Shown here piece after piece: positions 5,421-50,100 of a stretch of DNA of 64,000 nt. How positions within the stretch are numbered: position 1 is the first letter of the stretch; every line of letters starts with the position of its first letter. The notes beneath the pieces were generated by a model. That model saw only the letters and a program-made list of their open reading frames with translations. It was not told where the DNA came from and made no database searches. The stretch comes from Candidatus Melainabacteria bacterium (lineage in GTDB: Bacteria; Cyanobacteriota; Vampirovibrionia; 2-02-FULL-35-15): positions 17,832 through 81,831 of the forward strand of contig JAHFBG010000010.1 in assembly GCA_023250155.1 (NCBI GenBank), given 5' to 3'. The translations under genes were made by a program, and so were the position numbers.

Positions 5421-6059
5421 TTGCTTGGTATAATTAAAAGCATTATGAAAGAGATCTTAGAAAACATCTGGACGTGGTCAATGTTCTCAGAAGAAAAAGG
5501 ATATAACTTTAATGGTTACTTAATTTCTGATGGGAAGAAAAATGTTTTAATTGATCCTGTTAGGCAAAATGATGAAGATTTCAATTTTATTAAAAAGAAA
5601 GCTCCTTATGAAGCTATTTATTTAACCAATAAAGATCATTTAAGAGATTCAAAAAATCTAAAGACAAAATTAAATACTTCTATATGGATTCATGAAGAAG
5701 ATAAGCAGTATTTAGAAAATGATGTGGATTGTACATTTAAAGATGGAGATAAACTTACCTGTGAAATAGAAGTAATTCATCTAAATAATCAAAAATCTCC
5801 CGGAGAATGTGCTTTTTATCTACCAAGTAGAAAGGTTTTAATTTTAGGTGATGCTTTAATTGGATTTCCATCGGGAAGTTTAAAACTACTACCAAAAGAA
5901 AAATATAAGGATATCAAGAACACAATTAAGAGCCTTGAAAGGCTTGTATCACTATCCTTTGATACATTGCTATTAGGCGATGGTGAATCTATTTTAGAAG
6001 GTGCTAAAGAGAAGACAATTCACTTTCTACAAAATTATTTGTCCGTAATTTCTAAGTAA
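5421..6059 (+). CDS. MBL-fold metallo-hydrolase-like protein (degenerate His motif)
   Basis: N-terminal pattern NGYLISDGKKNVLIDP and GDALIG resemble the MBL fold. The canonical HxHxDH is degenerate (TNKDHLRD). Confidence 0.45.
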   Translation: MLGIIKSIMKEILENIWTWSMFSEEKGYNFNGYLISDGKKNVLIDPVRQNDEDFNFIKKKAPYEAIYLTNKDHLRDSKNLKTKLNTSIWIHEEDKQYLENDVDCTFKDGDKLTCEIEVIHLNNQKSPGECAFYLPSRKVLILGDALIGFPSGSLKLLPKEKYKDIKNTIKSLERLVSLSFDTLLLGDGESILEGAKEKTIHFLQNYLSVISK

Positions 6060-10400: not shown

Positions 10401-13400
10401 GAGCTTCCTGAAGAAGAAGTACTAATTACACTAACGGCAATACCACCTGATGAACTTGAAGAATTTCCTGACGAGCTTGAGCTAGATGAACTAGATGATG
10501 AGCCTGAAGATGAACTGCTACTAGAAGATGATGATGAGACTATAGGAGAAAGGGCTTTACATGAGAATGGAATCTTTCCTACCTTACTACCACTAACAAA
10601 CCAAAGACCATCAACTCCTGTAATTAAGGCATTACCACCACCACCCAAAGATTCATAAACATAAGTATTGTCTTTAAGAGTATAAAGAGAAATCGTTCCA
10701 TCCTTTGTGATTTTTCCAACTTTATTGCCAGCAGGAAACCAAACATTTCCATCCCCGCCTAGTGTTAAACTTCTAGCATAAGTACTGTCTGCAATGTTAT
10801 AAAAAGAAACTGTTCCATCTTTTGTGATCTTTCCAACTTTATTGCCAGCAGGAAACCAGACATTACTATCCCCACCCAGTATTAAACTTCTGGCATAAGT
10901 ACTGTCTTTAAGAGTATAAAGAGAAACTTCTCCATCTTTTGTAATCTTTCCAACTTTATCACCAGCAGGGAACCAAACATTGCCATCCCCACCTAGTATT
11001 AAGCTTCTAGCATAAGTACTGTCTTTAAGAGTATAAAGAGAAACTTCTCCATCTTTTGTAATCTTTCCAATTTTGTCAGTAGCAGCAAACCAGATATTAC
11101 CATCTCCACCTAACACTAAAGAGTTTCCACTCTCAAGAGAATTGGAAGAAATATAAGCATTGTCTTTAAGAGTATAAATAGTGCTCTCTCCATCTTTTGT
11201 AATTTTTCCGATTTTATTGCCAACAGGAAACCAAACATTACCATCCCCACCTAGTACTAAACTTTTGGTAGAAACATTGTCTTTGAGAGTATAAATAGTG
11301 CTCTCTCCATCTTTTGTGATTTTTCCGATTTTAGTATCAGCCGCAAACCAGACATTACCATCTCCACCTAGTACTAAAGGGGTTCCACTGTCATAGAGAA
11401 AAGAAGAAATATAAGCATTGTCTTTAAGAGTATAAAGAGTGTTTTCACCATCTTTTGTAATCTTCCCAATTTTATTCCCAGAAGGAAACCAAATACTGCC
11501 ATCCCCTCCTAGCACTAAACTTCTGGCATAAGTATTGTCTTTAAGAGTATAAAGAGAAATATTCTCTGCTTTCAATTCTTCTGATGAACAGCTTGATCCA
11601 CTTAGAGATGGTATTGTAGGAGAAAGGGCTTTACATGAGAATGGAATCTTTCCTACCTTACTACCACTAACAAACCAAAGACCATCAACTCCTGTAATTA
11701 AGGCATTACCACCACCACCCAAAGATTCATAAACATAAGTATTGTCTTTAAGAGTATAAAGAGAAATCGTTCCATCCTTTGTGATTTTTCCAACTTTATT
11801 GCCAGCAGGAAACCAAACATTTCCATCCCCGCCTAGTGTTAAACTTCTAGCATAAGTACTGTCTGCAATGTTATAAAAAGAAACTGTTCCATCTTTTGTG
11901 ATCTTTCCAACTTTATTGCCAGCAGGAAACCAGACATTACTATCCCCACCCAGTATTAAACTTCTGGCATAAGTACTGTCTTTAAGAGTATAAAGAGAAA
12001 CTTCTCCATCTTTTGTAATCTTTCCAACTTTATCACCAGCAGGGAACCAAACATTGCCATCCCCACCTAGTATTAAGCTTCTAGCATAAGTACTGTCTTT
12101 AAGAGTATAAAGAGAAACTTCTCCATCTTTTGTAATCTTTCCAATTTTGTCAGTAGCAGCAAACCAGATATTACCATCTCCACCTAACACTAAAGAGTTT
12201 CCACTCTCAAGAGAATTGGAAGAAATATAAGCATTGTCTTTAAGAGTATAAATAGTGCTCTCTCCATCTTTTGTAATTTTTCCGATTTTATTGCCAACAG
12301 GAAACCAAACATTACCATCCCCACCTAGTACTAAACTTTTGGTAGAAACATTGTCTTTGAGAGTATAAATAGTGCTCTCTCCATCTTTTGTGATTTTTCC
12401 GATTTTAGTATCAGCCGCAAACCAGACATTACCATCTCCACCTAGTACTAAAGGGGTTCCACTGTCATAGAGAAAAGAAGAAATATAAGCATTGTCTTTA
12501 AGAGTATAAAGAGTGTTTTCACCATCTTTTGTAATCTTCCCAATTTTATTCCCAGAAGGAAACCAAATACTGCCATCCCCTCCTAGCACTAAACTTCTGG
12601 CATAAGTATTGTCTTTAAGAGTATAAAGAGAAATATTCTCTGCTTTCAATTCTTCTGATGAACAGCTTGATAATCCACCTGAAGAACTTGGCGATAAGCC
12701 AGAGCTACTAGAAGATCCGCTTGAAGAGCTTGAAGATAGACCAGAGCTACTGGAAGATCCACTTGATGAAGATGCTAGCAATAAACCACCTGATGAACTT
12801 GAAGAAGAAACAACACAATCTGCAAAACCAAGACAGCTAGATGGGTTTGTAGGACAACAACCATTTATACAACAAAGGGCTCCACACTGTGTATAAGTAC
12901 ACGAAGTAGTAGATGGTGGTACTGGGATACATGTGTTATTAAGAAGTGCAGAAACTTGAGTGGCACTAAGGGCATTGTCATAGATTCTTACTTCATCAAG
13001 TCGCCCATTAAACGAACGATCATATCCTGCCATTGCGCTTTGTCTGGCACCAACAGAAACTATATGTGTATTAGTATCTAAAGCACCTTGAGCAGTACTT
13101 GCACTATTATTTTCTGTACCATTAATATATATGCGTGAAGTGATTCCATCATAAGTAGCTGCTAAATGAGTCCATGCAGTTGAAATTCCACCAGTAGCAG
13201 TAACACCATATGAAGTTCCACCTTTCCAGAAGAAAAAGCGATATTGATTACCAGTGCAGTCTAAACACCAGACCTCACCACCATTTCCATTTCCTTTACA
13301 GGCAATGGCATTGTCATTTGTTTGGGTACTACTATTTGGTTTCACCCATGCAGCAATGGTAACATTAGAAACATTAAACGATGCGTTATTTCCCACGTCT

Positions 13401-13684
13401 ACATAATCATCAGCCCCATCAAGACTCAAACTATAAGAACTACCAAAACACCTATTTGGTATGTCTGTAATTGTTGAATATGTTGGTCCATTAGTTAGTG
13501 TCCCTGTATTAGTTCCTTGAGAGTCAGTTGCTGTAGTACCACTACCTTCTTCAAATGAATAATAAGAAACTAGAGCAGCATTAGCTGACATGACTTGCTG
13601 AAAAGAAAGAAGCAAACAAAGTATAACTTTAAAAAATACTTTAAATACTTGTGGTTTTAATTTAGAAGAGATTTTTTCTAACAT
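7460..13684 (-). CDS. Giant secreted multidomain protein (2074 aa): signal peptide, LamG-like lectin domain, Cys-rich module, two identical 358-aa blocks of eight ~42-aa beta-propeller-blade repeats, Vgb/streptogramin-lyase-like (NHL-like) beta-propeller region (NIWFTE...NKIGKI blades), Pro/Thr-rich segment and a ~100-aa polybasic C-terminal tail
   Basis: Single uninterrupted ORF. LamG signature LDGADDYVDVGN...RLDEVRIYDNALS. Repeated GKITKDGxxTxYTLKDN...LVLGGDGNVWF and GPDGNIWFTExxxNKIGKI blades. Poly-Ser linkers. C-terminal KKKRLRVKMRGG...KKKKKKSR. Confidence 0.85.
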   Translation of the reverse strand: MLEKISSKLKPQVFKVFFKVILCLLLSFQQVMSANAALVSYYSFEEGSGTTATDSQGTNTGTLTNGPTYSTITDIPNRCFGSSYSLSLDGADDYVDVGNNASFNVSNVTIAAWVKPNSSTQTNDNAIACKGNGNGGEVWCLDCTGNQYRFFFWKGGTSYGVTATGGISTAWTHLAATYDGITSRIYINGTENNSASTAQGALDTNTHIVSVGARQSAMAGYDRSFNGRLDEVRIYDNALSATQVSALLNNTCIPVPPSTTSCTYTQCGALCCINGCCPTNPSSCLGFADCVVSSSSSSGGLLLASSSSGSSSSSGLSSSSSSGSSSSSGLSPSSSGGLSSCSSEELKAENISLYTLKDNTYARSLVLGGDGSIWFPSGNKIGKITKDGENTLYTLKDNAYISSFLYDSGTPLVLGGDGNVWFAADTKIGKITKDGESTIYTLKDNVSTKSLVLGGDGNVWFPVGNKIGKITKDGESTIYTLKDNAYISSNSLESGNSLVLGGDGNIWFAATDKIGKITKDGEVSLYTLKDSTYARSLILGGDGNVWFPAGDKVGKITKDGEVSLYTLKDSTYARSLILGGDSNVWFPAGNKVGKITKDGTVSFYNIADSTYARSLTLGGDGNVWFPAGNKVGKITKDGTISLYTLKDNTYVYESLGGGGNALITGVDGLWFVSGSKVGKIPFSCKALSPTIPSLSGSSCSSEELKAENISLYTLKDNTYARSLVLGGDGSIWFPSGNKIGKITKDGENTLYTLKDNAYISSFLYDSGTPLVLGGDGNVWFAADTKIGKITKDGESTIYTLKDNVSTKSLVLGGDGNVWFPVGNKIGKITKDGESTIYTLKDNAYISSNSLESGNSLVLGGDGNIWFAATDKIGKITKDGEVSLYTLKDSTYARSLILGGDGNVWFPAGDKVGKITKDGEVSLYTLKDSTYARSLILGGDSNVWFPAGNKVGKITKDGTVSFYNIADSTYARSLTLGGDGNVWFPAGNKVGKITKDGTISLYTLKDNTYVYESLGGGGNALITGVDGLWFVSGSKVGKIPFSCKALSPIVSSSSSSSSSSSGSSSSSSSSSSSGNSSSSSGGIAVSVISTSSSGSSSSSSSSSSSSSGSPEEDISGQCPINKTQKFELKSASNPLNIILGSDGNLWFTEAGRNQIGKIADNGDITEYKVPTQGSYPFNLTVGSDNNIWFTEFDANKIGRITKDGDFTEYKIPTLKSKPIGITSGPDGNIWFTERDGNKIGKIIVQQSLQPILGAPTFSDIIEYKIPTQDSNPYGIVAGPSGDIWFTEFDANKIGRITRDGSVVEYKIPTQDSSPYGIALGLDDNVWFTEKDGNRIGKIDSNNGNITEYKIPADCSPANIITGPDGSLWFTEKTQKNKSRIWRLTTDGDFFKYAPTTNFTKPSSLAFGPDNDLWFTEPSTNVIGRASFACKFVPPVVVVLSSSSSGLLSGPILQKHDIPTVASNPFGITKGLDGSLWFTEVGKNKIGQASINGQITEYDLPQNDSGPLNITTAFDGNIWFTEKLKNKVGKISSDGMITELDVSSTTTDIATGSDGNLWFGETAKKIGTVAIDGRITEFDVPDVPAYLSLGPDGDIWFTESSKNKIGKIAIDGRVAEFDIPTISSLPSDLTLGPDNNLWFIESGAKKIGKIAIDGSVIEFNLPIDSGLPNRITVGPDGNIWFTIKGKNNDGLGKVSLNGDITTYNLPKKFSTPNDITSGPDRNLWFTIDDEVIPSANTTPSTIIELKDSIGTFIVSLLPVLSPPASPGPVTNTSTTSSGGGTGLNTLGGVSSSSGTVVVNPTPPTNPISNPPAPNPPPPVVENIPVVSSEPISVPNIVNGTMVSTFDSSQLIAGSENAIFLRNLTGNIKDLITNTNQNIFVQITDNAGKIHKVQASVYLPPGAEDSPLLITDLVPEDLTDTALLNLVILVGDAPVAQTVVSVVKPRIDSTSPISVVNKPLNTLQPVIEQIKVFRKKKRLRVKMRGGNFFRAKRVLVNKRKKIRKKVAQTIFEIIPSENLVFKKRFIGKGRRKANVLFTILDKNIKGEFVLVITNPYGRTVKLIEVPQRAKKKKKKSR
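10543..12671 (-). repeat. Two tandem, nucleotide-identical 1074-bp units (358 codons each) inside the giant gene
   Basis: Segments checked at 10561/11635, 10981/12055 and at the unit ends are identical at DNA level. Unit boundaries diverge at 10542/11616 and 11598/12672. Confidence 0.85.
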
Positions 13685-17827: not shown

Positions 17828-17999
17828 GTCTTACCCTGCACCATATCACTCCACCTTGACAAGCAATATAAAGAATTGCTAACTCTCCTTTGTTTGGTTC
17901 CATGTATTCAATGCTTAGCTCTGAGTTTAAACCATCAGAGATAAATGATGATTTTGAAGAAATCTATAATGTTGCTTTTGCAAGCATGGAATCATACAT
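17828..17999. pseudogene. Mosaic of decayed fragments: a ~70-bp degraded copy of the doxX 3' end (17828-17895) followed by a degraded copy of the GNAT stop/start junction (17901-17999, with an internal ~40-bp deletion)
   Basis: Direct comparison: 17901-17999 vs 16419-16550 and 17828-17895 vs 18001-18075, both about 80-90% identical. Confidence 0.55.
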
Positions 18000-25640: not shown

Positions 25641-25686
25641 TTTAAAAACTCCCGGGAGAGGACTTGAACCTCCGACCAATCGGTTA

Positions 25687-26193
25687 CTATCTGACTCCAA
25701 TTACTTGGAGAGTCGGACTTTCTCTTCACCTTCAACTTTACGTTAAGGTGGTAGGTGTAAAGTCTCTGCACTCGGATAATTATTTATCCTAGCTCAGGAT
25801 TGCCCGTTATCTCTCGATACTTGGGTTTCCCTGAATTAGCCTACTTTTTCACCGTAATATTACTACTACGGGCTGCTAACTTTGAATGTAACTCTCTATG
25901 GCAATTAGCACATAACATTATGCACTTATCAAGTTCTTCTTTCACTCTGTCCCAACCTCGTGTATATCCTTTACTAGAAATACTAAAGTCTTTTTGTTTT
26001 GGATCAAGGTGATGAAATTCAAGAGCCTCAGCACAGCGAAAATAACCACAAGATTCACATTTGCTACCTTTATATTCAATAGCATTAATTCGAATCTGTT
26101 TTCTTCTCTTTCTAACAGCATTGATTAAATACTGTTTTCTATCACTGTACTTTCTGGTTTCTTTTTTAACCATAGATTCTTAACATTTATTTT
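25687..26193 (-). mobile_element. Group-I-like self-splicing intron (~507 nt) in the tRNA-Asn anticodon loop, carrying an HNH endonuclease ORF
   Basis: 5' exon ends in U and the intron ends AGAUAG (omega-G). The segment after the ORF contains UCAGGGAAACCC (P4-like), CAGAGACUUUACACC (R-like) and AAAGUCCGACUC (S-like). GACUUU/AAAGUC can form P7. Confidence 0.6.
25841..26173 (-). CDS. HNH homing endonuclease (intron-encoded)
   Basis: CESCGY...LEFHHLDPK...CANCHRELH HNH motif. Same strand as the tRNA; starts 20 nt into the intron. Confidence 0.8.
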   Translation of the reverse strand: MVKKETRKYSDRKQYLINAVRKRRKQIRINAIEYKGSKCESCGYFRCAEALEFHHLDPKQKDFSISSKGYTRGWDRVKEELDKCIMLCANCHRELHSKLAARSSNITVKK

Positions 26194-26415
26194 ACAGCCG
26201 ATCGCTCTACCACTGAGCTACCCGGGAATATCAGAGTACAAATTAATTGATAATTAAAAATTGAGAATTGAAAATTAAAGAATTTACTAATCACCAATTT
26301 TTCAGTAACCTATACTAGCGCATTTTAAAACTGCTGTCATCTGATTGTTGAGCTTATGATGTTATAAGTCTAAGGATACAAAAATATCAATTATAATTAA
26401 CCATTAGTAAGACAT

Positions 26416-37144: not shown

Positions 37145-37474
37145 CTATTTGTCTAGTATTTTTTCTATTTGAGCTTTTAAAACCGGTAGATGTTTTGCCA
37201 GAACCATTTCTACAATACTTAGGTCAACTTTAAAGTATTCATGAACTATTACATGTCTCATACCAATAATATTCTGCCAGTTTATTTCACTATGTTGGGT
37301 TTTAAATTCTTCAGGAAGAGTTCTTGCAGCTTCTCCGATAATCTGCAAGCAGTGAACAATTCCATATACTTCAATATCATGACACTCATAAAATTTTCGT
37401 TTGTTTAGGTAGCTTTCAACATCATTAATTGTTTTTAAGATATCTTTTAATCTTTGTTGTACTATTTCATTCAT
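37145..37474 (-). CDS. HepT-like (DUF86) toxin of a HepT/MntA toxin-antitoxin pair
   Basis: GMRHVIVHEYFKVD Rx4HxY-type motif. 4-bp overlap with the upstream nucleotidyltransferase gene. Confidence 0.75.
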   Translation of the reverse strand: MNEIVQQRLKDILKTINDVESYLNKRKFYECHDIEVYGIVHCLQIIGEAARTLPEEFKTQHSEINWQNIIGMRHVIVHEYFKVDLSIVEMVLAKHLPVLKAQIEKILDK

Positions 37475-37761
37475 ATTTTAATGGCTTCATTAAGGGCATT
37501 TTCCCTAATTTTTTCTTTTAGTGTATTTGCAGTAAAAACCTCAATCTTTACTTTTAAAAGTTTGTTTAATTCTATCCATAACCCGCCTAAATCCCAGAGG
37601 CTTCTATCACCTCTTAAATCTACAAGAAAATCTATATCACTGTCTTCATTAGTTTGATTACGTGCAACAGAACCAAAAATCCTTACATTATAAGCCCCAT
37701 ATTGATCTGCAATCTTAAGTATTTCTTCTCGTTTGTGTTTTATTAATTCATATAGGCTCAT
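37471..37761 (-). CDS. MntA-like minimal nucleotidyltransferase (antitoxin)
   Basis: RIFGSVARNQTNEDSDIDFLVDL Pol-beta-type NTase motif. Confidence 0.8.
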   Translation of the reverse strand: MSLYELIKHKREEILKIADQYGAYNVRIFGSVARNQTNEDSDIDFLVDLRGDRSLWDLGGLWIELNKLLKVKIEVFTANTLKEKIRENALNEAIKI

Positions 37762-37795
37762 ATTTATTTCCTTCTATTTATTGTACACGATTTTC

Positions 37796-38974
37796 TTAAT
37801 CTAAGAAATACTTTTTTATCCCTATCTGCCAGGGGAATAATTTTACATGTTCAATTTTTTTTTGATAGGGATCATTTGAGAGGCATATGGCTTCGCACCT
37901 TCCAAAATCATTTGTAAGTTTAATAAATGAGAGTAAAGATTCTTTAGTGATTTGTTTGGAACTTTTAATCTCAATTAATAAAACTGACTTTCCAGGACGT
38001 TCTACAACCAAGTCTATCTCTGCACCATCCTTTGTCATCAAATAGCTAAACTTATACTCTGTCTTATAATATGTAGCTAATTTTATACACTCTAGTATTA
38101 TAAAGTGTTCGAATGCTTCGCCATACGCTGAAGTCCTTTCTACTAGTGGTACTGATAGTGTTCTATTTAATGCTTTTGTTATACCAGGATCAAAAAAATA
38201 AAATTTTGGTTTCGTACTTAATCTTTTTCTAAATGAGTGGTGAAAGCCTTCTAAAAAAAATCCTAATAGCGTATCTTCGAGAATTGTATAATATTTTTTT
38301 ATAGTTTTATCATCGACCCCTACGTCTCGTGAGATATTGGAAAAATTAATGACTTTAGCATTCATTTGTGCAGCAACTTCTAAAAAACGCCTAAATGGAT
38401 CTAAGTCTTGTACAAATTGCTCTGCCCATACTTCTTCTTTAAGGTAAGAATGAGCATATGCTTGTAAAAATTGAGTTTTGTATGTTTCACTCTTTAATGA
38501 ATGAATCTTAGGTAATAACCCCCATCTGAGAGCATCAGACAAGCTAAACTCTTTACCTAACTCTAATGCACTAAATGGGTGTAAATGATAAACAAAAGCT
38601 CGCCCTGCAAGCAAATTAGCAAAGCCACGCTTAAGCTTTCTGGCACTTGAACCTGTAAGAATAAACTTTTTGTCAGTAGATTCAATTAAAGAGTGAACAG
38701 GGTCCAAAAGTTTTGGAATCTTTTGAATTTCATCAATAACAACATGTTTAAATTTTTTAGGTAGAGCCTTAACGATTTCTATTAGCTCGCCTGGATTTCT
38801 TGAAAATCTATCCTCCTGTTCAGGAATCAGTAAATCTATCATAAAACTATTATTTTTAAATCTTTGAAGAATTAAGGTACTTTTTCCTGTTCCTCGTGGG
38901 CCAAATAAGAAAAAGCTATGATTAGATGGCAGACTTAAAAATCTATCTATGGATTGTTCAGATTCGGATACCAT
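37796..38974 (-). CDS. AAA-family ATPase with C-terminal DUF4143-like domain
   Basis: Walker A GPRGTGKST; Walker B VVIDEIQK. Confidence 0.8.
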   Translation of the reverse strand: MVSESEQSIDRFLSLPSNHSFFLFGPRGTGKSTLILQRFKNNSFMIDLLIPEQEDRFSRNPGELIEIVKALPKKFKHVVIDEIQKIPKLLDPVHSLIESTDKKFILTGSSARKLKRGFANLLAGRAFVYHLHPFSALELGKEFSLSDALRWGLLPKIHSLKSETYKTQFLQAYAHSYLKEEVWAEQFVQDLDPFRRFLEVAAQMNAKVINFSNISRDVGVDDKTIKKYYTILEDTLLGFFLEGFHHSFRKRLSTKPKFYFFDPGITKALNRTLSVPLVERTSAYGEAFEHFIILECIKLATYYKTEYKFSYLMTKDGAEIDLVVERPGKSVLLIEIKSSKQITKESLLSFIKLTNDFGRCEAICLSNDPYQKKIEHVKLFPWQIGIKKYFLD

Positions 38975-39172: not shown

Positions 39173-42100
39173 ATGAAAATAATACCTACATTTCTTAGAA
39201 ACTTTATCGCCAATGTTTGTACCACTAAACATAGACAACTAGTTAATAGTGGTGCAAAGCCTGAACACATAAGTGTCTATAATGAAGCCAAAGATGAATA
39301 CTATAAAAATAACTGGAAAGTAAAACAATTATTTGATTTAGATAAAGAGTTAATCATAGCCAATGTATCACCAGAACAATTAAAAGCTTGTAATGAAGTT
39401 ATGATTCAATTTCATAAGAATGAAGTTGATACAAGAAATCTAACTGATGTTTTAGTTAAAACACTTTTACTTAAAGCTACACCTGATCAAATTAAATTGC
39501 TTAGTCAAGGCTTGGTCGGTACTTCTAAAGAATATAAACAAGAGTATGATGCTGGAAGGGATATAGCAGGAGGAGATTATATAACGGTAGAACAATCTGT
39601 AATAAACAAAAACCAACTTATTTTTTTTAGCTTGGTTAGCGCTAATCCCAATACTGCTCAGTGTGAACTGCTGAAATATGTACATGATATAAAATCACAC
39701 AATGTCTGGTCTGGATTGGATTGGAAAGGGTTTGTTGAAGCATACATAAAGCTCTTAAATAAAAAACCTACTAATGAACAATTTCAAAGCTTTAAAGAAT
39801 TTATTAAGGTTTATATGGAGGATTCTAAGAAGCGCGAGCATTTAGTAGAACTAACAAATCATTTTACAGATTTAATCCCAAAATTATATCTAAAAAATGA
39901 TTGGGAATCCTATGGTAAAGCATTTTCAATTTATACAAACAATAAATGGTATTTAGATGATTTTATACATAATGTAGCTGATTTAGCAGGTAGAAAAAAC
40001 TTTGATAAACAGTTAGATGTATATATCAGTGCTTTAAAACAAATTCGATATTTAGCAATAGAGAAGAGTGGCGATGGTTTCCCAAGATATGAGCATGTAG
40101 TAAAAACTTTTAATGATATTTTTTTTCCTGAAATAGCAAACAAAGATCTCCCGAGCAAATACTGGGATTTATTGTCTACAGTATTAAAAAAAGAAGCCAA
40201 TGTTGAAAATAAAGTTTTTCGTACAGACTGGGATGTAATTGAGTTTACTAAATCATTTGTAGATCTTATAAAACTTAGTCTAAATAAAGAGCATCTTGAA
40301 AACTACCATGACATTATTTCTTTTATATATAAAAATTGTAAAAACATAAGTGAAACTACTCCTATTATTAAGTTTGTTTTAGCAAAACCGAGTAAAGAGC
40401 TAATAGAAATATATAAGAAAGCATTGTCTCTTTATACTGTCACTGATCTTCTTAGCTTTCCCGTTTCTCAAGATCGCCTAAAGACCTTATTAATAGGAGA
40501 GTTCAATAGATTAGCTAAAGCTAATCCTCCTAAAAAACTACTTGAAATACTTAACGATAACATGACTACTACTAAAAGTTTTATAGGCAAGCAAATTATA
40601 AAATGTGCTGCATTGGTCGAACCATTTAATACTTATGAAGCAAACAAAGATAAACTAACTAAGCTTAGTTCTGAGATGAAACAATATTTAGAAGATGAGT
40701 GGAAAGAAGAGCTTACTGATGTTAAAAAATTAGATGAACCTAACAAGGTAGATCCCCTACTGAATGAGGTTATTATAAAAAATTTATACCCTCTGTCATT
40801 AAGTGATAAAGAATGGGATTTGTATAATCAAGCTATCTTATATGATAAGGGCTCCACCTATTTAAATTTAAAAATAAGTTTAACTAGTGATTTTGTGCGC
40901 TTAATTAAATCAAAACCAACTCAAGAAGAATGGTTATTATATGAAGATGTTTTTTCTTATTATAAAACAAACAAACTTAAGTCAGATCGAACAATCTGGA
41001 ATCTAGCTTATTTATTTGAAGCTAAACCAGAAAAAGAAAAATTAGATAAATACAAAGAGTGGATAGTTTTATTTCAAGAGAAGGATTTAAGTTTAACTGA
41101 ACTAGTTAAACTTTGTGCACAACTTGCTAAGCCAGGTAATTTCAATAAGTATTTTAATGAGTGCAATAAAGAAATAAAACTTGCTTTAGAAGATGAGGCA
41201 TTAACTAAGGATTTGGATGTATTTTGCAGGTCACTAACTCAATTAATCGATAATGATTGTCTTCCTGAACATATTAAATTGTGGGTTGAAGTATTTGACT
41301 ATCACACTAAAAATCATTGGAGTGTACCAGGTGAAATGTTTGTTAGAGCCGTACAAGATAAGGTTCCGATGCAATTACTTAGAAATTATAGAAACTCATT
41401 AGTAAATGGAATCATAAAGTCACAAGAGGAATCAAAGAAACTTTTAACTGAGTTTCGATATCACTCTGCTATTTATAGAATTCTTAGACAAGAAGGAGAT
41501 ATTGATGCTGCAAGAACTCTTCTTCAAAATGAAGCAAAAAGCGATGAATTGCCAATTAATTTATATATGTCAAGTTCAAAGCATAAGATTCTTAATCCTG
41601 AAGCTATAAAAATACAAACTGAAACGGAAAGAGTTGTTAAAAGATCTTTTGATAAGAGCTATGGTTTCAGTGCACTGACTTTTGATTCTAAAAGATCACC
41701 TACGAAAGAACCTGCTCTATTAGCTCGTTTTGGTAATGATGTAGGAGATATAGAGTATATTAATGCTAAAGACATAAGTCTCTTTCCTGGTAAAGGCTTT
41801 ACAATTTCTGATTTTGATTTAAACAAGATTCTGGTTCCCGATGAAAACAATACAGAAGATCCACATCACCTTTATAAAGAAGCATGGCCATGGGCAAAAG
41901 ATGTATTTGATGACTTTCCAAAAACTGAGTTTGTTTTTACACGAGGATTTATGGCTGTACTAAACAAGGATAAAAAATATATCTTAAATGGAATACCTTA
42001 CAGTTATTTAGTAGTAAATAACCATCACCACAATAAAGGCTGTGATACTGCATATTTAGTACCTACAAAAATATTGGAAGAAAAACTTAAAGATACTAAA

Positions 42101-42937
42101 GTACCATATAAAGACATTATTGGATTTTCTAAAAACCATAAAGATATAAATGAAAATGGTTTAAAAATAGAAGATTTAATTGGGGCTTCAGATGATAATG
42201 CGCCCATATTAAATCTAGGATGGGGAACAAACTTTGGTGGTGGCCTATGTAATGCTTATCCACTAGATTCCAAACCTTATTTTGAATGGGAGAAAGAACT
42301 AAGACCTCAAATTCATCATACAAAAGACTTTTGGGAAAGGGTCCATAAGTCACATATTACTGGTACATATGAGACCAGTATGTCAAGAGATCCAAAATTC
42401 AAAGAACTATTAAAACCTTTACGGCAAGCACATGATGATGTTTATAAGATTACGGATAACTATCAAAATCTTTATGACTTATTTAGATTATATTTTTCTA
42501 TGTGGAAAAAAGGATTTACAGTAGGTGAAAAAGAAATTACAGAAGAAGATTTATTTCAAGAACTTGAACCACAAAACTTAGAGCAAGATGATAATGATTT
42601 TGTCTATAATCCAAACTCACTTAGGATGTTAAATGAAGCCTATAAATGGCATGAAGGAAGAAGCCTTGGAATAGAAGATAAAAATTATTATCCAGTTCTT
42701 GTTATAACTGATACCCTTGATTATTGGAGTCAACCTAAGTCACCAATTATGCTGGACACCTATGACATGATGCTTTATACAAATGGTAAAAAAATCCCAT
42801 TAAATCAAGAAGGAGTGGATGATATAGAAAAAGAAATATGGTATAAATTAGTGATGCCACAAGCCAAAGACTCTATAAAAGATCTAAGGTTTTATGATAG
42901 GAGAGATCTCGACTTATTAGGAGGAAATAATCAATGA
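39173..42937 (+). CDS. Large unclassified protein, paralog 1 of 3 (1254 aa): conserved N-terminal ~110 aa, helical-repeat array, conserved His/Cys-rich C-terminal ~480-aa domain
   Basis: Shares MKIIPTF..LV.AGA..EHI...SPEQLKACNEV N-terminus. C-terminal blocks YGFSALTFD.KR.PTKE, NNHHHNKGCDTAYLVPT, NLGWG.NF.GGLCNAYPLDSKPYF and HKSHITG are shared with the other two. Confidence 0.8.
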   Translation: MKIIPTFLRNFIANVCTTKHRQLVNSGAKPEHISVYNEAKDEYYKNNWKVKQLFDLDKELIIANVSPEQLKACNEVMIQFHKNEVDTRNLTDVLVKTLLLKATPDQIKLLSQGLVGTSKEYKQEYDAGRDIAGGDYITVEQSVINKNQLIFFSLVSANPNTAQCELLKYVHDIKSHNVWSGLDWKGFVEAYIKLLNKKPTNEQFQSFKEFIKVYMEDSKKREHLVELTNHFTDLIPKLYLKNDWESYGKAFSIYTNNKWYLDDFIHNVADLAGRKNFDKQLDVYISALKQIRYLAIEKSGDGFPRYEHVVKTFNDIFFPEIANKDLPSKYWDLLSTVLKKEANVENKVFRTDWDVIEFTKSFVDLIKLSLNKEHLENYHDIISFIYKNCKNISETTPIIKFVLAKPSKELIEIYKKALSLYTVTDLLSFPVSQDRLKTLLIGEFNRLAKANPPKKLLEILNDNMTTTKSFIGKQIIKCAALVEPFNTYEANKDKLTKLSSEMKQYLEDEWKEELTDVKKLDEPNKVDPLLNEVIIKNLYPLSLSDKEWDLYNQAILYDKGSTYLNLKISLTSDFVRLIKSKPTQEEWLLYEDVFSYYKTNKLKSDRTIWNLAYLFEAKPEKEKLDKYKEWIVLFQEKDLSLTELVKLCAQLAKPGNFNKYFNECNKEIKLALEDEALTKDLDVFCRSLTQLIDNDCLPEHIKLWVEVFDYHTKNHWSVPGEMFVRAVQDKVPMQLLRNYRNSLVNGIIKSQEESKKLLTEFRYHSAIYRILRQEGDIDAARTLLQNEAKSDELPINLYMSSSKHKILNPEAIKIQTETERVVKRSFDKSYGFSALTFDSKRSPTKEPALLARFGNDVGDIEYINAKDISLFPGKGFTISDFDLNKILVPDENNTEDPHHLYKEAWPWAKDVFDDFPKTEFVFTRGFMAVLNKDKKYILNGIPYSYLVVNNHHHNKGCDTAYLVPTKILEEKLKDTKVPYKDIIGFSKNHKDINENGLKIEDLIGASDDNAPILNLGWGTNFGGGLCNAYPLDSKPYFEWEKELRPQIHHTKDFWERVHKSHITGTYETSMSRDPKFKELLKPLRQAHDDVYKITDNYQNLYDLFRLYFSMWKKGFTVGEKEITEEDLFQELEPQNLEQDDNDFVYNPNSLRMLNEAYKWHEGRSLGIEDKNYYPVLVITDTLDYWSQPKSPIMLDTYDMMLYTNGKKIPLNQEGVDDIEKEIWYKLVMPQAKDSIKDLRFYDRRDLDLLGGNNQ

Positions 42938-43167
42938 TGACTATTAGAACAGTAAGAAGTGTATTTGCAGCACCAGCGGCACCACCACAAGCTCCACCAA
43001 AACAACCAGACACAAAGCCTGATACACAACCAGCTCCATCAAAACCTGCTCCAGCACCACCAAAACCACAGCCAGTAAAACAGCCTACACCTACACCGAT
43101 TAAAGAACCTTGTCCAAAGCCCAATGGAGAACCTATTCCTGGAATTTGTCCGATCAATGATCCGTAA
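42934..43167 (+). CDS. Small proline-rich protein (77 aa), translationally coupled to paralog 1 (ATGATGA overlap), C-terminal GEPIPGICPI motif
   Basis: Start overlaps the upstream stop. Composition PAPSKPAPAPPKPQP. C-terminus is conserved with ORF 51132..51374. Confidence 0.6.
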   Translation: MMTIRTVRSVFAAPAAPPQAPPKQPDTKPDTQPAPSKPAPAPPKPQPVKQPTPTPIKEPCPKPNGEPIPGICPINDP

Positions 43168-43225: not shown

Positions 43226-46200
43226 ATGAAAATTATCCCAACATTCTTTAGGAAGTTTGTTGCTTCTTTGCCATTTACTAAAACAAGAAGTTTAGTAAAA
43301 GCAGGTGCTACCTATGAACATATAAAAGTATTTAATGAAATCTATAATCAATTTTATAAAAACAATTGGAATGCTAAAAAATTAGTTGAGGATGAAAAGA
43401 GTTTTATAGCATTAAATGTATCACCTGAACAGCTAAAAGCCTGCAATGAAGTTCTTATTCACTTTCACAAGGAAAAAATATTGACAACACACTTAGTAGA
43501 TATATTAACTGAAATGCTTTCATTAAAAGCCACACCAGAACAAATATCTTTAGCAAAAAAATACTTGACCATTGGTTCAAAAAAAAGTCTTTATATTAGT
43601 CCTGGAATCATTCCAAAAGAACAAAAAAGTTTTTTTAATTTGATAAAAGAAGGTCCATCAAAAGAGTATTGTGCATTGTTTGAATCTATACCATTAAACA
43701 ATCGTAGAACAGTTGCTTCTAATTTTAGTAGAGTATCAACTGAACTATTAAAAGAAAATTTGAGCACTGATCAATTAAAGCTATATAAGGATACAGTTGA
43801 TTATCATTTTGAAAACAAGTTTAGCGTTTACGAGTTAATGTGTTTGCTTAATAAGCTGATTAAAGAAAATAAACCACCTGAACAATGGAATGCTTGTGCT
43901 AAAGCCCTTAATATCTATAAAGAAAATAAGTGGGAAATAGATGAGTCTACTTTTATGTTGGTTGATATTTTAAAGAATCATAATGTTAATAATAAAGCGA
44001 ATTTATATATTTTAGGGATCTCTAGGTGTAAAGAACAAAAACTAGATCATGATCAGGCAGCCTTTACAAACAGTTTTAAAGAACTACTAAAAATATATCC
44101 TTCAAAAGATGATTTAGATCTATTTGAACAAGGACTACAAAACTGTTCAAATCCTATAGAGTGGACTAATTACTTTACGTATCTTTTAAAATTAAGCCCA
44201 AAAGAAAATAAATATAATGTTTATAAAAAATATTGCTCACTTCTTTTAAAAGATGGAGAAGATATTCAAGATGTAACAAGAGTATTTACAAAGTTAATCA
44301 TGAAAGGACAACCATCAAAAGAAATAGAATCCTGTTTTCAAATATACTTCAATTTAACATCTCATATAAAAACCAATTACAATAATACATTCAATGTAAA
44401 TAGTGTCATTGACATAGTTTTAGCCAATCCAGATAAAGAACTAATAGAACTATATAAAGAGACTTTGTCAGTCTATTCAAAAGCAAAAACTAAAACACCA
44501 CTTAATCCACTTGCTAAAGAGTTTTTAGAATATATAAAATCAGATCCAGAACCTATACAACAAGAGCTCTATAAACAAGGACTAGAAGCACATAAAGACA
44601 ATTATGTCTTAATGGAAAAATTTATATCTATGAGTATCGCTTTAACTAAGGCACATAAAGACTATGAACTATACAAAGACAAACTAAAATATCTTGCACC
44701 TGAAATAAAAAAAGACTTAGAAGATGAATGGATCTATGCATTTACGGATACTCATATGCTAGCTAAATATAAAGATATATCGATATCTTACTATCCACCA
44801 TTAAATAATCAAATCGTCAGATTAAGTTATAAAGATTTTAGAGAAAATAAAGATATATGGGACATCTACAATGAGCTTGCTTTAAGTCAAAGGAAAAAAA
44901 ATCTGTCTCTAGTAGACTTTACAAGAGACTTTGCTGCATTAACTCTTCTAGAACCAAGCAAAGAATATTGGGACTTATATAAAAAAGCTATTTCTTATCA
45001 CATAGAACATGATTTTCCTCTTACAGATCTAACTGGACATCTAGCGTCATTAGCATATGCAAAATCATATAGTAAGAATTTAAAGATCTATGATGAAGCC
45101 ATAAACTATTTTAAAGATCGCAAGCTTCCACTGGATAAATTAATTAGTAGTTTTGTTACATTGGCAAAATACAATGTTCAATATGACTTTTTAAAAGAAT
45201 TTTATAAGATACAAGCATACTTTCAAGAAAACAATATCGATGCTAATGACTTTAACAAACAAGCTGCTCTCTGGGCTAAAGACAATATAAGTGGAGAACA
45301 TTTAAAAATCTTCAAGGAATTATATGTAGGTTATCTAAATAAAAAATGGGACCTGAATGAGCTAAAAACAGATTTAATACTTTCTATAGAAGAAGAGTAT
45401 CCAATACAACTTTTAAGAAATATTAGAAATGAAATTCAAAATGGAAGTATTAAATCGGCAGAAGAAGCAGAACATCTGTTTCAAGACATCAGATTTCATA
45501 CAGCAATTTACAAAATACTTAGACAAGAAATAAGCAAAGATGAAGCTAAAAAGATTTTATCCATTTTTGGAGGGGCACAAGCAGACTCTCTACCTGTTCA
45601 TATATATTCAAATTCTACTAGGCACGAATTTAATCCAGAAGCAATAAAAATACAGAATGAAACTGAAAGAGTTTTTACAAGACTTTTTGATTTAAATTAT
45701 GGTTTTAGTTCTTTAACAGTAGACTGTAAAAGAACACCTACTAAAGAATCTGCTTTATTAGCTAATTTCGGCAATGATGTGGCAAATGTCAACTATATTA
45801 ATGCCAAAGATATAAGTCTTTTTCCAGGACGTGGTTTTGAGATTTCTAGTTTTGATTTAAATAAAATTTTAATTCCAGATAAAACAAATCCAACAGACCT
45901 ATACCATCTTTATAAAGAGTCGTGGCCCTGGGCTAAAGAAACACTAGATAATTTTTCGAAAACCAAGTTTATATTTACTCGTGGTTTTGTAGTTATAACT
46001 AATCCTGATAAAAAATATATATTAAATGGAACTCATTATAGTTATTTTGTAGTAAACAATCATCATCACAACAAAGGCTGTGACACTGCATATCTTGTGC
46101 CTACTGAAATACTAGAAAAAAAATTAAAAGGAACTACAATTCCATTTATGGATTATGTTGGAGTTTCAAAAAACCACAAAGATATCAATGAAGCGGGCTT

Positions 46201-47008
46201 ACAACTTGATGATTTAGTAAAAGATGCTAATGAAAAGGGATTACAAGTGCTAAATCTTGGATGGGGATCTAACTTTAGCGGTGGCTTATGCAATGCTTAT
46301 CCACTTGATTCAAAGCCTTATTTTAAATGGGAGAAAAAATTACGTGGTAAGCATACAAAAGATTTTTGGGGAAGAGTTCATAAGTCTCACATCACAGGCT
46401 CTTGGCAATCTAGAATGTTTGACGATCCAAAGCTCAAGAAATTGTTAGCCCCTTTAAGAAAAGCACATGATGAAATCTATACACTAACAAATGATTATCA
46501 AAATCATTTTGACTTGTTTAGATTGTTTTTTTCTATGTGGAAAAAAGGATTGACTGTGGGAGAAAGAGTATTAGAACCTACTAGTGATGACTTGTTCCAA
46601 GAACTTGAACCCCAGAATTTAGAACCTGGACAGTTTGATAAAAGTGCTTTTGATAATGAAATAACCAATAGAGAAGCGATTTTAGAATACTCAGAAAATC
46701 CAAACTCCCTTAGAATGCTGGTTGAAGCATACAAATGGCATGAAGCTAAAAAACAAGGGATTAGTGGTCCTAATTTTTTCCCTATCTTAGTAGTAACGAA
46801 TACACTAGACTACTGGAGTCAACCAGAATCAAAGATTATGCTTGATACTTACGATATGACTATTCATGCTGATGGTAAAACTATTCCTTTAAATGAAGAA
46901 GAGTTGACTTTTATAGAAAAAGGATTGTGGAATAAGAGCTTCTTACCTTATATGCTTGACTCTACAAAAGATTTAAGGTTTTATGACAGAAGAGATTTGA
47001 ATATGTAG
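43226..47008 (+). CDS. Large unclassified protein, paralog 2 of 3 (1260 aa); no coupled small ORF
   Basis: Same N- and C-terminal conserved blocks as paralogs 1 and 3; divergent middle. Confidence 0.8.
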   Translation: MKIIPTFFRKFVASLPFTKTRSLVKAGATYEHIKVFNEIYNQFYKNNWNAKKLVEDEKSFIALNVSPEQLKACNEVLIHFHKEKILTTHLVDILTEMLSLKATPEQISLAKKYLTIGSKKSLYISPGIIPKEQKSFFNLIKEGPSKEYCALFESIPLNNRRTVASNFSRVSTELLKENLSTDQLKLYKDTVDYHFENKFSVYELMCLLNKLIKENKPPEQWNACAKALNIYKENKWEIDESTFMLVDILKNHNVNNKANLYILGISRCKEQKLDHDQAAFTNSFKELLKIYPSKDDLDLFEQGLQNCSNPIEWTNYFTYLLKLSPKENKYNVYKKYCSLLLKDGEDIQDVTRVFTKLIMKGQPSKEIESCFQIYFNLTSHIKTNYNNTFNVNSVIDIVLANPDKELIELYKETLSVYSKAKTKTPLNPLAKEFLEYIKSDPEPIQQELYKQGLEAHKDNYVLMEKFISMSIALTKAHKDYELYKDKLKYLAPEIKKDLEDEWIYAFTDTHMLAKYKDISISYYPPLNNQIVRLSYKDFRENKDIWDIYNELALSQRKKNLSLVDFTRDFAALTLLEPSKEYWDLYKKAISYHIEHDFPLTDLTGHLASLAYAKSYSKNLKIYDEAINYFKDRKLPLDKLISSFVTLAKYNVQYDFLKEFYKIQAYFQENNIDANDFNKQAALWAKDNISGEHLKIFKELYVGYLNKKWDLNELKTDLILSIEEEYPIQLLRNIRNEIQNGSIKSAEEAEHLFQDIRFHTAIYKILRQEISKDEAKKILSIFGGAQADSLPVHIYSNSTRHEFNPEAIKIQNETERVFTRLFDLNYGFSSLTVDCKRTPTKESALLANFGNDVANVNYINAKDISLFPGRGFEISSFDLNKILIPDKTNPTDLYHLYKESWPWAKETLDNFSKTKFIFTRGFVVITNPDKKYILNGTHYSYFVVNNHHHNKGCDTAYLVPTEILEKKLKGTTIPFMDYVGVSKNHKDINEAGLQLDDLVKDANEKGLQVLNLGWGSNFSGGLCNAYPLDSKPYFKWEKKLRGKHTKDFWGRVHKSHITGSWQSRMFDDPKLKKLLAPLRKAHDEIYTLTNDYQNHFDLFRLFFSMWKKGLTVGERVLEPTSDDLFQELEPQNLEPGQFDKSAFDNEITNREAILEYSENPNSLRMLVEAYKWHEAKKQGISGPNFFPILVVTNTLDYWSQPESKIMLDTYDMTIHADGKTIPLNEEELTFIEKGLWNKSFLPYMLDSTKDLRFYDRRDLNM

Positions 47009-47169
47009 TGAGCTAAGAATATCTTTTTAATTTGTTTATTTATTTTAATCTGAATTGTCACAAGCTTAAATTTATTTAGTACTCTTAACCTTGGAAAAAT
47101 TTAATTATTCAAAACAAGAAAAACACTTGACCTTTTTTCTTATATGATCTATTCTATATAGACATATAT

Positions 47170-50100
47170 ATGGACATATTTGAATCTAAGCTTTTTACCC
47201 CTATTGCCTACCTTTTAGGATGGGCTCCATACCATAAAAGAACAAAGGATTTGGTTAAGGCTGGTGCCACTCCTGAACATCTACAAATCTATAATGAGTG
47301 TTTCCCAAAACTAAAATATAAGCACATAAATTATTATGACTCCTATAAATATAGAAAAGGGCAATGGGAGGACTTTAAGTTTCCAGAAACTTTTATAAGC
47401 TTAATCACTGCCAAGGTCTCACCAGAAACTATACAAACTTTTAGCAACATACTGGTAAAACTTTTTAACAACAGTAACAACAGTCAGGTTAATCCTGCTT
47501 TACTTGACCTAACACTTAAAGGTACAAAACCAGAGTACTTATCATTGTATGATAGGAATTTTGATCATTTAAATTACCATGAGGAGTCATTTGTACAGTT
47601 TATACAATTAAACCCTACAACTGAACAGTTTAATTTATACGAAAAATTAATTAATATAGATGATTATGAACTCCGTCAATCTATTATAAAAGAATTTCCT
47701 GAGCTTCTAAAATTAAAACCCGACAAAAGCACATGGGATCAGCTTTCTAAACTCTTGGAGGAAAATATAAAGCTTGCAAATTATAAAAAGGCTTATGATT
47801 TGCTTCATAGCTATGTTCAATTAACCAATATACAAACTTCAGAAAACGAGGCTGATAAAGATCTCTTTATAAAAGCCAACTCCTACTATGAAGAAAAAGG
47901 ACTTGTTAAAGATGAGACACTTAATGATTTTGTACAATTACTAAAGAATAATGTAAAAAACCCTTTTCTAGATGATTATAATAATCTCTACAATGCCTGT
48001 AACAATAAGAAAATCAATCGAGATCTGTTTCTTAAAGCACATATATTAATAGCAAGCTTATCTCCATCTGAAACACAGTACTCACTTTACAAGAAACAGC
48101 TTCAATCTGAATATGAGCTAAATAATATTTCCTGGTTTTCTCAAGCATATGCAGAACTTATAAAAGCTAATCCTACAGATGAACAGTTTGAAATATATCG
48201 TGATGTTTCTAATAAATTCATTCAAGATAATTTACCATTACATCGTTTAATTAAAACTTTTGTTTCTTTACTAAATGAAAAAGTACCGAATGAAATTATA
48301 GCCTCAAAGCTTGAGACATATTATAAGTTGCTCTCCTTTATAAAAGAATCACTATTCAAAACAATTCCTTCAAAAGACGATTGGGGTGATAGACAAAGCC
48401 GAGAATCTATCTTCAAGTATGGGGATTCTGCCTATGGAAATATTAGTGAGTTAACAAACTTAATTAAGCTTAATCTCTCAGATGAGCCGTTAGAAGCATA
48501 TAAAAAACTAATTTCATCACATACATTTCAAAGTGTCGATCCATTAACAAAGAATTTTATTGATTTATTAAAAACCAATCCATCAAATGAATATTTAACC
48601 ATTTATAGTAAGGCCATTTCACTTTATCCATCATCATATAATACTGAGCAGTTTTCTAAACATCTTATAGCATTGATAAATGCAAAACCATCAAATGAAC
48701 AGCTTTTAATGTATATTCTAGCTTTAGAATCATATAGAGATTTATATGATAAAGAAAAGGCAAAATCCCAAAGCCACTATACATCTATAGTTACACTTGA
48801 TGAAATTGATAAGCTAACACTAAAGCATGCTGAAACAATAAAAGCATTAAATAGTTACCCGGCTTTAAAACCATTTTTAGACAAATTAAACCCAAAAATA
48901 AAAAATCAAATTGAGCACATAGTAATAGGTAGCAAAAGTGATAACAATGATAACTGTGCAGATGTTATTAATGCATTGAAAAGCTTTATAGATACTAATC
49001 CTACTAATGAACAATGGGATTCATATAATAAGATTACTGGTTATCATCTAGAAAAAGGCTTACCAATTGTTCCGTTAACAAATTCATTTGCAGAGTTTAT
49101 TTCCAATAACCCAAGCAAGGAAAACAGGGATTTATATAATACTCTTATTGCCTACCACATGGAACATGGATTTGCTTTAGATACACTATCTCAAAGCTTA
49201 GTAAACATCTTTAAAACTCAATCTAATAAAGAACAGTTAGCAACAGTTATTCGAACCATTGAAGAAATTAAGAACAAAGAGCGACAGCTTAGTAGTTTTC
49301 TACAGTTCGTTTCAACATCAAATATATTAAACTCTTCCGACAAACTTCTTAGTGGAGTTATTGATGTAATTACTTACTTCCCTGAAGAAATTGTAAAAAA
49401 ATATGATTTGTTTGCTGAGTTACAAACCCTTATAAAAGAAGGGTGCTCTAACGAACACATTAAACTCTATAAAGAACTCTTGGATTTTTGTATAAAAAAC
49501 AAACAAGACTTTACTGGTTATTACTGCAATCATAAAAATCTTATACATGAATTTGTAAAAGAAAAATATCCAATACAACCATTAATCAATTTTAAAAATA
49601 GTTTACTCGATGGGCAGATCAAATCTCAAGAAGATATAACAAAATATCTTACTGAGATAACACATCATTCTGTAATTTATAAGATACTTAGATCAAATGG
49701 TGATAATAAAGCTTTAAAAACAAAACTAATGAACAGTGCACAAACAGATGAATTGCCTGTACCTATTTATTCTGACTCTAACCGTAGTTCTTATAATCCT
49801 GAAGCTATAAAAATGCAACAAGAAACAGAAAAAACACTTGTAAGACTTCTTGATGTTAATTATGGTTTTAGTGCTTTAACTTTTGACTGTAAGCGCCCTC
49901 CGTCAAAAGAACCACCTCTTCTAACTCGCTTTGGAAATGATGTTGGGAAGATAGAGTACATTAATGCTAAGGATATAAATGCTTTTCCAGGAAAAGGATT
50001 CTCAATATCAAAATTTAATCTAAATAAAGTATTTGTAGCTGATAAAACAAACTCAACCGATCCTTTTCATACTTATAAAAAAGCTTGGGACTGGTCAAAA

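Follow-up and report, generated by a model that had tools for sequence, protein, structure and literature searches.

A proline-rich small gene translationally coupled to a large gene of an undescribed family forms a conserved two-gene module in Melainabacteria and other bacteria

Contig JAHFBG010000010.1 of a Candidatus Melainabacteria bacterium (assembly GCA_023250155.1) carries, in the 64,000-nucleotide (nt) stretch analysed here as a whole and referred to as the window (positions 17,832 to 81,831 of the forward strand), three large genes in tandem named W1, W2 and W3. Two of them, W1 and W3, are directly followed by a short proline-rich open reading frame (ORF), s1 and s3, respectively. The question raised by this locus is whether such small ORFs are genuine genes that belong with their large neighbours and, if so, what role the encoded proteins may play. 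A preliminary description of this DNA had considered them as real partner genes that could act as anchor, chaperone or immunity-like factors.

W1 (39173..42937, plus strand; 1254 amino acids (aa) in the ORF list) is followed by s1 (42934..43167, plus strand; 77 aa, 32% Pro; MMTIRTVRSVFAAPAAPPQAPPKQPDTKPDTQPAPSKPAPAPPKPQPVKQPTPTPIKEPCPKPNGEPIPGICPINDP), and W3, the third paralog (47170..51135, plus strand; 1321 aa), is followed by s3 (51132..51374, plus strand; 80 aa, 29% Pro, net acidic; MKTQFFSVRPVLLKTATAPPIAPPEPEVEPIVEPETEPAERPTPTQPIPQPVHQPTPTVVPEPGPTPDGEPLPGICPIIR). These coordinates, lengths and translations match exactly those previously reported, and both small ORFs do begin inside the upstream stop codon, as had been claimed: their start codon is the ATG of an ATGA tetranucleotide whose TGA terminates W1 and W3, respectively. 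The two junctions, GGAGGAAATAATCAATGA and GGAGGTACAAACCAATGA, share one architecture made of a GGAGG Shine-Dalgarno sequence, 9 nt and the ATG. On the plus strand, the GGAGG lies at 42920..42924 within the last codons of W1 and at 51118..51122 ahead of s3. Through the ATGA overlap and the internal Shine-Dalgarno sequence, translation of s1 and s3 is physically coupled to that of the large gene.

The composition of the two small ORFs is unusual for the window, in which Pro content averages 4.8% over the 145 ORFs with 50 aa or more and the next highest value is 17.5%. Their GC content reaches 0.45-0.46 compared to 0.30-0.31 in the large genes, a local rise that is due to the CCN codons. A DNA-repeat origin was considered and rejected: Tandem Repeats Finder detected weak and short arrays only, and s1 and s3 are therefore not a microsatellite or another DNA repeat. 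At the protein level, PQPV[KH]QPTPT is common to both in their middle part (PVKQPTPT at 43072..43095 in s1, PVHQPTPT at 51282..51305 in s3). The C-terminal ends, GEPIPGICPINDP in s1 and GEPLPGICPIIR in s3, take the common form P[IL]PGICPI, in agreement with the shared PGICPI C-terminus first noticed; it corresponds to PIPGICPI at 43132..43155, which holds the conserved Cys-Pro of s1, and to PLPGICPI at 51342..51365. s1 also contains a PDTKP motif at 43006..43020 and a first Cys-Pro at 43111..43116.

The same pairing, which the preliminary description had proposed to look for in other genomes, was found to be widespread. Homologs all derive from metagenome-assembled genomes (MAGs), whose taxon labels are those of the depositors. 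The loci L001 and L005 came from a first word-based protein search and a metagenome scan, L007-L015 from a second search with an alignment of the conserved C-terminal domain of the large protein (C-domain), and 22 more loci, in named MAGs, from a genome scan in which the large proteins are 24-45% identical to W1. Counting the 32 distinct large genes with readable downstream DNA, a Pro-rich ORF of 63-118 aa and 23-34% Pro is present downstream and on the same strand in 30 of them, and it is this recurrence that makes the arrangement more than chance. The small ORFs start from -26 to +103 nt relative to the large-gene stop, most of them at 34 nt or less. The two exceptions are W2 in the window and L037, a member of a divergent subfamily of 1415 aa. 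On one further contig, a gene of 68 aa was called in this place 3' of the large gene, and the gene order is that of the window, namely CN-hydrolase, agmatine deiminase, large gene and small gene, then cyclase and NUDIX genes on the opposite strand.

The hosts of the paired loci span a genomic GC of 32-56%. The Candidatus Melainabacteria MAG nzgw190 (GC 0.32) contains three paralogs (L016-L018), each with a small gene, and L016 is syntenic with the window, the agmatine deiminases being 73% identical. Other hosts are labelled Bdellovibrionota or Bdellovibrionales (GC 0.47-0.56) and Pirellula or Planctomycetaceae (GC 0.49-0.53). A chlamydial origin, which SWIB and TIC20 neighbours had suggested, was rejected in view of these named MAGs. 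ATGA overlaps at ATG starts are found at W1, W3, L011 and L010, which belong to distant lineages, and in low-GC loci a GGAGG or AGGAG Shine-Dalgarno sequence precedes the ATG of the small ORF; some high-GC starts are uncertain, with TTG or ATG alternatives. Translation of the small and large genes is thus coupled in many family members. No third gene is conserved beside the pair across the loci compared, and the module is a self-contained two-gene unit. Moreover, the pairwise identities of the small proteins correlate with those of the C-domains of the large proteins (Pearson 0.82, a value reached in 0 of 2000 Mantel permutations), which indicates that the linkage is ancient and was not repeatedly invented.

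Two loci of this set deserve mention on their own. In L036 (2941..4218), from a Pirellula MAG, the large gene is frameshifted, as a pseudogene or through an assembly error, and the downstream Pro-rich ORF is intact (MMQIQSTAPVKEP...PLQPFCPVPE). In L007 (2950..8613), the family member of 870 aa (GTG start at 6001) abuts the stop of an extra, preceding gene of 1016 aa that has no Pfam match; the two may represent a split or mis-started longer gene, or the first may encode a separate N-terminal-repeat protein.

Pairing alone leaves room for the view that the small ORFs are not independent genes and correspond instead to non-coding DNA, to an antisense Gly-rich gene or to an extension of the large protein by frameshift or readthrough. 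In its favour, the small proteins are not found in a collection of 15 billion proteins, either by exact look-up or by profile search, and at two Pirellula-type loci automatic gene calling settled on the antisense frame. Against it, of the six frames only the sense one stays open in all five close homologs, and its mean ratio of nonsynonymous to synonymous differences per site is the lowest (pN/pS 0.49, other frames 0.58-2.15). This ratio is somewhat biased towards the sense frame by the protein-guided codon alignments, but the stop-codon count is independent of that. The ratio of the corresponding substitution rates (dN/dS) of s1 amounts to 0.21-0.29 versus the small ORFs of L001, L005, L007 and W3 and to 0.52 versus that of L008, and it is 0.17-0.29 by the Nei-Gojobori method (NG86) for the closest small-ORF pairs, dS being near saturation or saturated in these estimates. 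The invariant columns of the DNA alignment are largely the first and second positions of CCN codons.

The antisense Gly-rich frame had already been held unlikely, and it can now be excluded. Antisense and shifted frames hold stops in close homologs: L001, whose small ORF is the closest homolog of s1 (69% identity), lacks any antisense ORF of 50 aa or more in the small-gene region, and the sole one in L007 (54 aa) overlaps the 5' part only. An antisense gene was therefore rejected, as the frame carries stops in several homologs and is not maintained. Of note, the stored gene calls take this frame at L009 (8761..8958, minus strand) and L010 (8597..8896, minus strand), where the Pro-rich sense ORFs lie at 8694..8972 and 8694..9050, respectively; such antisense calls are a systematic annotation trap for the small-protein family. 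An extension of the large protein by frameshift or readthrough was rejected in the same way, because the frame and distance of the small ORF relative to the large gene vary, because every small ORF begins at a start codon of its own, in most cases ATG (with a Shine-Dalgarno sequence in low-GC loci), and because none of 158 large-family proteins has a Pro-rich C-terminal tail. The idea that the small ORFs are not genes is hardly credible and already largely refuted. They are genuine, selected and co-inherited protein-coding genes, and the earlier claim of real partner genes is borne out by a pairing kept down to 24-30% large-protein identity, by purifying selection restricted to the sense frame, by the Shine-Dalgarno and start context and by co-divergence.

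The middle paralog raises a question of its own. W2 (43226..47008, plus strand; 1260 aa) starts 58 nt past the s1 stop and has no small gene of its own, as had been stated: the AT-rich intergenic spacer on its 3' side (47009..47169, 161 nt) contains no Pro-rich ORF or visible remnant. A promoter-like site is located in this W2-W3 spacer at 47127..47155, ahead of W3. Of the three, W2 is the closest to the large protein of L001/L016 (52% identity over the full length, W1 41%), whose gene, unlike W2, has a small partner; in L001 this partner is closer to s1 (69%) than to s3 (55%). The simplest reading of these identities would be a tandem duplication of the large and small unit, followed by faster divergence of W1 and by loss of the small gene of W2. 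W2 may also borrow s1, which lies directly upstream and could serve both W1 and W2.

W1, W2 and W3 are tandem copies of one previously undescribed gene family, W1 being 43% identical to W2 and 37% to W3. In W1, a divergent all-helical repeat region spans residues 1-734 (39173..41374), and the conserved C-domain of about 520 aa occupies residues 735-1254 (41375..42934), with the motifs FPGKGF, FTRG, NNHHHN, GGLCNAYP, VHKSH, LDTYDM and DLRFYDRRDL. While the C-terminal 520 aa or so are 62-64% identical among close members, the N-terminal 730 aa or so diverge strongly, and this region is not conserved across the family. An exhaustive HMMER search of 1.84 billion cluster representatives identified 303 family members at E<=1e-10, so about 300 clusters at 50% identity, and among the members listed the conserved domain makes up the C-terminal end of the protein or lies close to it. 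The most conserved polar positions over 158 representatives are, in C-domain numbering, D461 (98%), R190 (97%), N215 (96%) and H217 (93%), followed by R505 (92%), R509 (90%) and H324 (85%).

Known domains and folds were searched for in both partners. W1, W2, W3, s1 and s3 have no Pfam or NCBIfam match, seven further long family members have no Pfam domain, and W1, W3, s1, s3 and two homologs (P0015 and P0103) have no PADLOC or PHROGs match. A C-domain profile found no match in PDB sequences. The AlphaFold2 (AF2) model of the W1 C-domain reached a predicted local distance difference test score (pLDDT) of 82.7 and a predicted template modelling score (pTM) of 0.88, and Foldseek returned no match for it at E<=1e-3 in PDB and BFVD. 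The N-terminal region of W1 was modelled by AF2 as all-alpha (pLDDT 70.6), with weak fold matches to designed helical repeats only. The large protein is cytoplasmic-looking. A literature search on the motif and on a Pro-rich coupled small protein in Bdellovibrio found nothing relevant. The two-gene module is previously undescribed, as no described family, structure or paper was found for either protein, and we do not think that it is an artefact, because it is widespread and conserved.

What do the small proteins have in common across this family? A Cys is conserved in the C-terminal part of all 30, usually 2-6 residues from the end, and P-x-x-(hydrophobic) stands ahead of it in every case. 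This Cys is followed by Pro in 27 of the 30 proteins (CPI, CPM, CPF, CPA/V/T) and by Arg in two, and L032 ends at the Cys; the Cys-Pro is usually preceded by I, F or Y or followed by I, M, F, A or V. PGICPI is the form that this conserved Cys motif takes in the low-GC clade. The conserved ending described at first thus holds for the window pair, whereas family-wide only a Cys, usually in a Cys-Pro, is kept near the C-terminus. Some low-GC members (those of W1, L001, L005 and L008) possess a second Cys-Pro 9-12 residues upstream. In the same way, the body that had been called low-complexity is indeed Pro-rich (29-32% in the window) but not featureless: PV[RKH]xP followed by xPxP (for instance PQPVKQPTPTP or SPVRVPAPAP) is found mid-protein in most members, and PxT[KE]P (for instance PDTKP) in the low-GC and some other clades.

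The hydrophobic N-terminus that had been described exists in the window and in the low-GC clade, where about 12 residues alternate between basic and hydrophobic with a hydrophobic stretch of less than 10 aa, but it is absent in the Pirellula clade, whose members begin with MTIHAPTKEP or MGTQTPTKEP. Judging by composition, the small protein is probably an intrinsically disordered or polyproline-II chain that bears three short linear motifs, since a Pro content of 23-34% is hard to square with a regular alpha or beta fold.

These N-terminal features bear directly on the proposal of an anchor or rigid spacer, in which a TonB-like polyproline rod would tether the large protein to the membrane or envelope by its hydrophobic N-terminus. 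The XP-dipeptide-rich segments (KPDTKP, TPTPIKEPCPKP) resemble rigid Pro-rich spacers, long X-Pro runs with Lys, Glu and Thr are expected to form an extended polyproline rod as in TonB, and the low-GC clade offers the alternating basic and hydrophobic segment. However, this segment is not long enough to cross a membrane, and it is missing in the Pirellula clade, which speaks against the anchor option of the preliminary description. In addition, the small proteins have no signal peptide, lipobox, transmembrane anchor, TonB C-terminal domain or linkage to ExbBD, and their total length is 63-118 aa. An anchoring or spacing role is accordingly regarded as very improbable.

The reading considered most likely is that of a subunit, with which the small protein would regulate or inhibit the large one. 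The small protein would be produced at a ratio of about 1:1 to its large partner and would bind the conserved C-domain of the latter in an extended, polyproline-like conformation through the short linear motifs PxT[KE]P, PV[RKH]xP and P-x-x-x-Cys-Pro, the last at the C-terminus. Its functional group would be this Cys-Pro near the end: it could reach a putative polar site comprising R190, N215, H217, H324, D461, R505 and R509 as a ligand, a nucleophile or a plug, and by reaching this conserved site the small protein would act as a dedicated regulatory or inhibitory subunit. The C-domain is the favoured target as it is the conserved part across the 158 representatives and carries the conserved polar set. 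Taken as a whole, the model of an extended partner subunit that binds or regulates the C-domain in stoichiometric amounts is favoured by a narrow balance of probability.

Several observations weigh against this proposal. W2 and L037 have no adjacent small gene. The small proteins have net charges between -6 and +7, and binding therefore cannot be mainly electrostatic. There is no family-wide Cys in the large protein, C292 of GGLCNAYP being only about 50% conserved, and no metal-binding or catalytic signature can be recognised in it, which makes the step with the Cys as ligand or plug speculative.

Alternatively, the small protein could be a dedicated substrate of the C-domain, either as a precursor resembling those of ribosomally synthesized and post-translationally modified peptides (RiPPs) or as a scaffold or carrier peptide. 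Modification would take place at the conserved C-terminal Cys-Pro or close to it, and cleavage or release might follow. As in RiPP precursor-maturase pairs, a short peptide gene with a conserved Cys-containing C-terminal segment adjoins a large uncharacterised protein, here one without known domain. Also in favour of this reading, conservation is strongest in a short C-terminal 'core' whereas the upstream part varies in length, and the module is self-contained. RiPP maturases belong to classes such as radical SAM, YcaO, LanM/LanB and MNIO. No known maturase class was recognised by Pfam and NCBIfam in 12 family members, however, and the neighbourhood contains no conserved gene for a protease, an exporter or immunity. 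The gene of the peptide is also 3' of the putative enzyme gene and coupled to it, which implies synthesis at about 1:1, an unusual ratio between enzyme and substrate; its conserved motifs run along the whole peptide, which is not typical of a leader, and the peptide is unusually long and Pro-rich. This substrate role is unlikely on present evidence. The small proteins also differ from proline-rich antimicrobial peptides, which are short, strongly cationic and Arg/Pro-rich (PRP), by their net charge, by the predominance of Lys, Thr, Glu and Asp over Arg and by their length of 63-118 aa.

A more specific version of the inhibitory-subunit idea is a toxin-immunity pair, in which the C-domain would be a toxic effector and the small protein its immunity or latency factor. 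As in toxin-immunity systems and in toxin-antitoxin systems with disordered antitoxins, the small gene lies directly 3' of the functional C-domain, with coupled translation. Bdellovibrionota MAGs are among the hosts, several in number, the N-terminal region of the large protein is variable, and single genomes contain several paralogs (three in the window, L016-L018, L021 and L034, L020 and L037). On the other hand, PADLOC and Pfam recognise no toxin or defence domain, and the conserved C-terminal and divergent N-terminal halves are the reverse of those of polymorphic toxins. A signal peptide or secretion-system marker is not evident in either protein, the pair is not linked to secretion genes, and at W2 and L037 there is no small gene next to the large one. 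Unlike disordered antitoxins, the small partner is Pro-rich and not helical or folding on binding. A toxin-immunity pair is for these reasons quite improbable.

Returning to the regulatory subunit and its Cys-Pro, two known systems provide possible leads. Heme-regulatory Cys-Pro (CP) motifs are reportedly located in disordered regions of HO-2, BACH1/2 and ALAS (PMC10377097, PMC2742820). They lie in flexible segments, commonly with aliphatic hydrophobic neighbours, and binding of Fe(III)-heme through the Cys thiolate of the motif has a shift to about 370 nm as its signature (PMC10377097). The Cys-Pro of the small proteins resembles them by its position in a flexible non-globular segment, often beside an aliphatic or aromatic residue (ICPI, FCPM, FCPA, TCPF), and by the presence of two CP motifs in several members. 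Nevertheless, the known heme-regulatory motifs are inside larger regulated proteins and not in a free-standing Pro-rich mini-protein, and no heme-related genes are linked to the module, so the likeness may be taken as a lead, a resemblance and not a membership.

The propeptide of matrix metalloproteinases (MMPs) contains a cysteine switch, PRCGxPD. By analogy, the single conserved Cys of the small proteins, in its Pro-flanked motif, could plug the active site of its partner and maintain it in a latent state. In contrast with MMPs, the large protein has no HExxH motif or peptidase family match, its conserved His residues being in NDH, HKSH and WH contexts, and the Cys-bearing element is a separate gene product instead of a propeptide. 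This resemblance as well would serve as a lead only.

Beyond these leads, the module might constitute a new two-component system in which a large protein of unseen fold depends on a free-standing, disordered polyproline mini-protein with a functional Cys-Pro near its end, which could serve as a cofactor, bind heme or a metal, or be the point of covalent attachment or of modification. This proposal is tentative and held to be rather doubtful. To our knowledge, dedicated and fully disordered Pro-rich partners that act by short linear motifs have rarely been described in bacteria. If true, it would represent either a bacterial case of a dedicated micro-protein that regulates through short linear motifs or a new, RiPP-like enzyme-peptide chemistry. 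In any case, the pair adds a conserved small-protein family that is not in the protein collection searched and ties it to a 'dark' large family without domain or fold annotation. The strict pairing is the first functional handle on this large family, and the invariant Cys is an obvious probe.

The surroundings of the module contain other genes of interest. Between the agmatine deiminase gene and W1, a segment at 37145..38974 (minus strand) encodes a HepT-like RNase, an MNT nucleotidyltransferase antitoxin and an AAA_14/DUF4143 ATPase. This three-gene block looks like an insertion, because at syntenic loci (L016, L007, L008 and the ERZ27297570 contig) the deiminase gene is directly upstream of the family large gene or genes, with the extra 1016-aa gene coming before the family member in L007. 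On the other side, just past the cyclase and NUDIX genes bordering the module, a MazF/PemK-like toxin gene is found at 52417..52761 (minus strand). It is overlapped upstream by an ORF of 100 aa (52752..53054, minus strand) that has no Pfam match and is probably the antitoxin of this toxin.

Farther away in the window, a tRNA-Asn(GUU) at 25648..26228 (minus strand) is split in its anticodon loop by a 507-nt group I intron. We know of no bacterial group I intron hosted by tRNA-Asn. The tRNA was missed by ARAGORN in its default mode and appears with the intron search only; the intron matches Rfam RF00028 with 79.6 bits (25694..25929), and an ORF within the intron (25841..26173, 110 aa) contains an HNH-like CANCH motif. 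Finally, an ORF of 2074 aa at 7460..13684 (minus strand) combines an N-terminal Laminin_G_3 domain with about eight Vgb_lyase-type beta-propeller repeats (Pfam E 1e-264).

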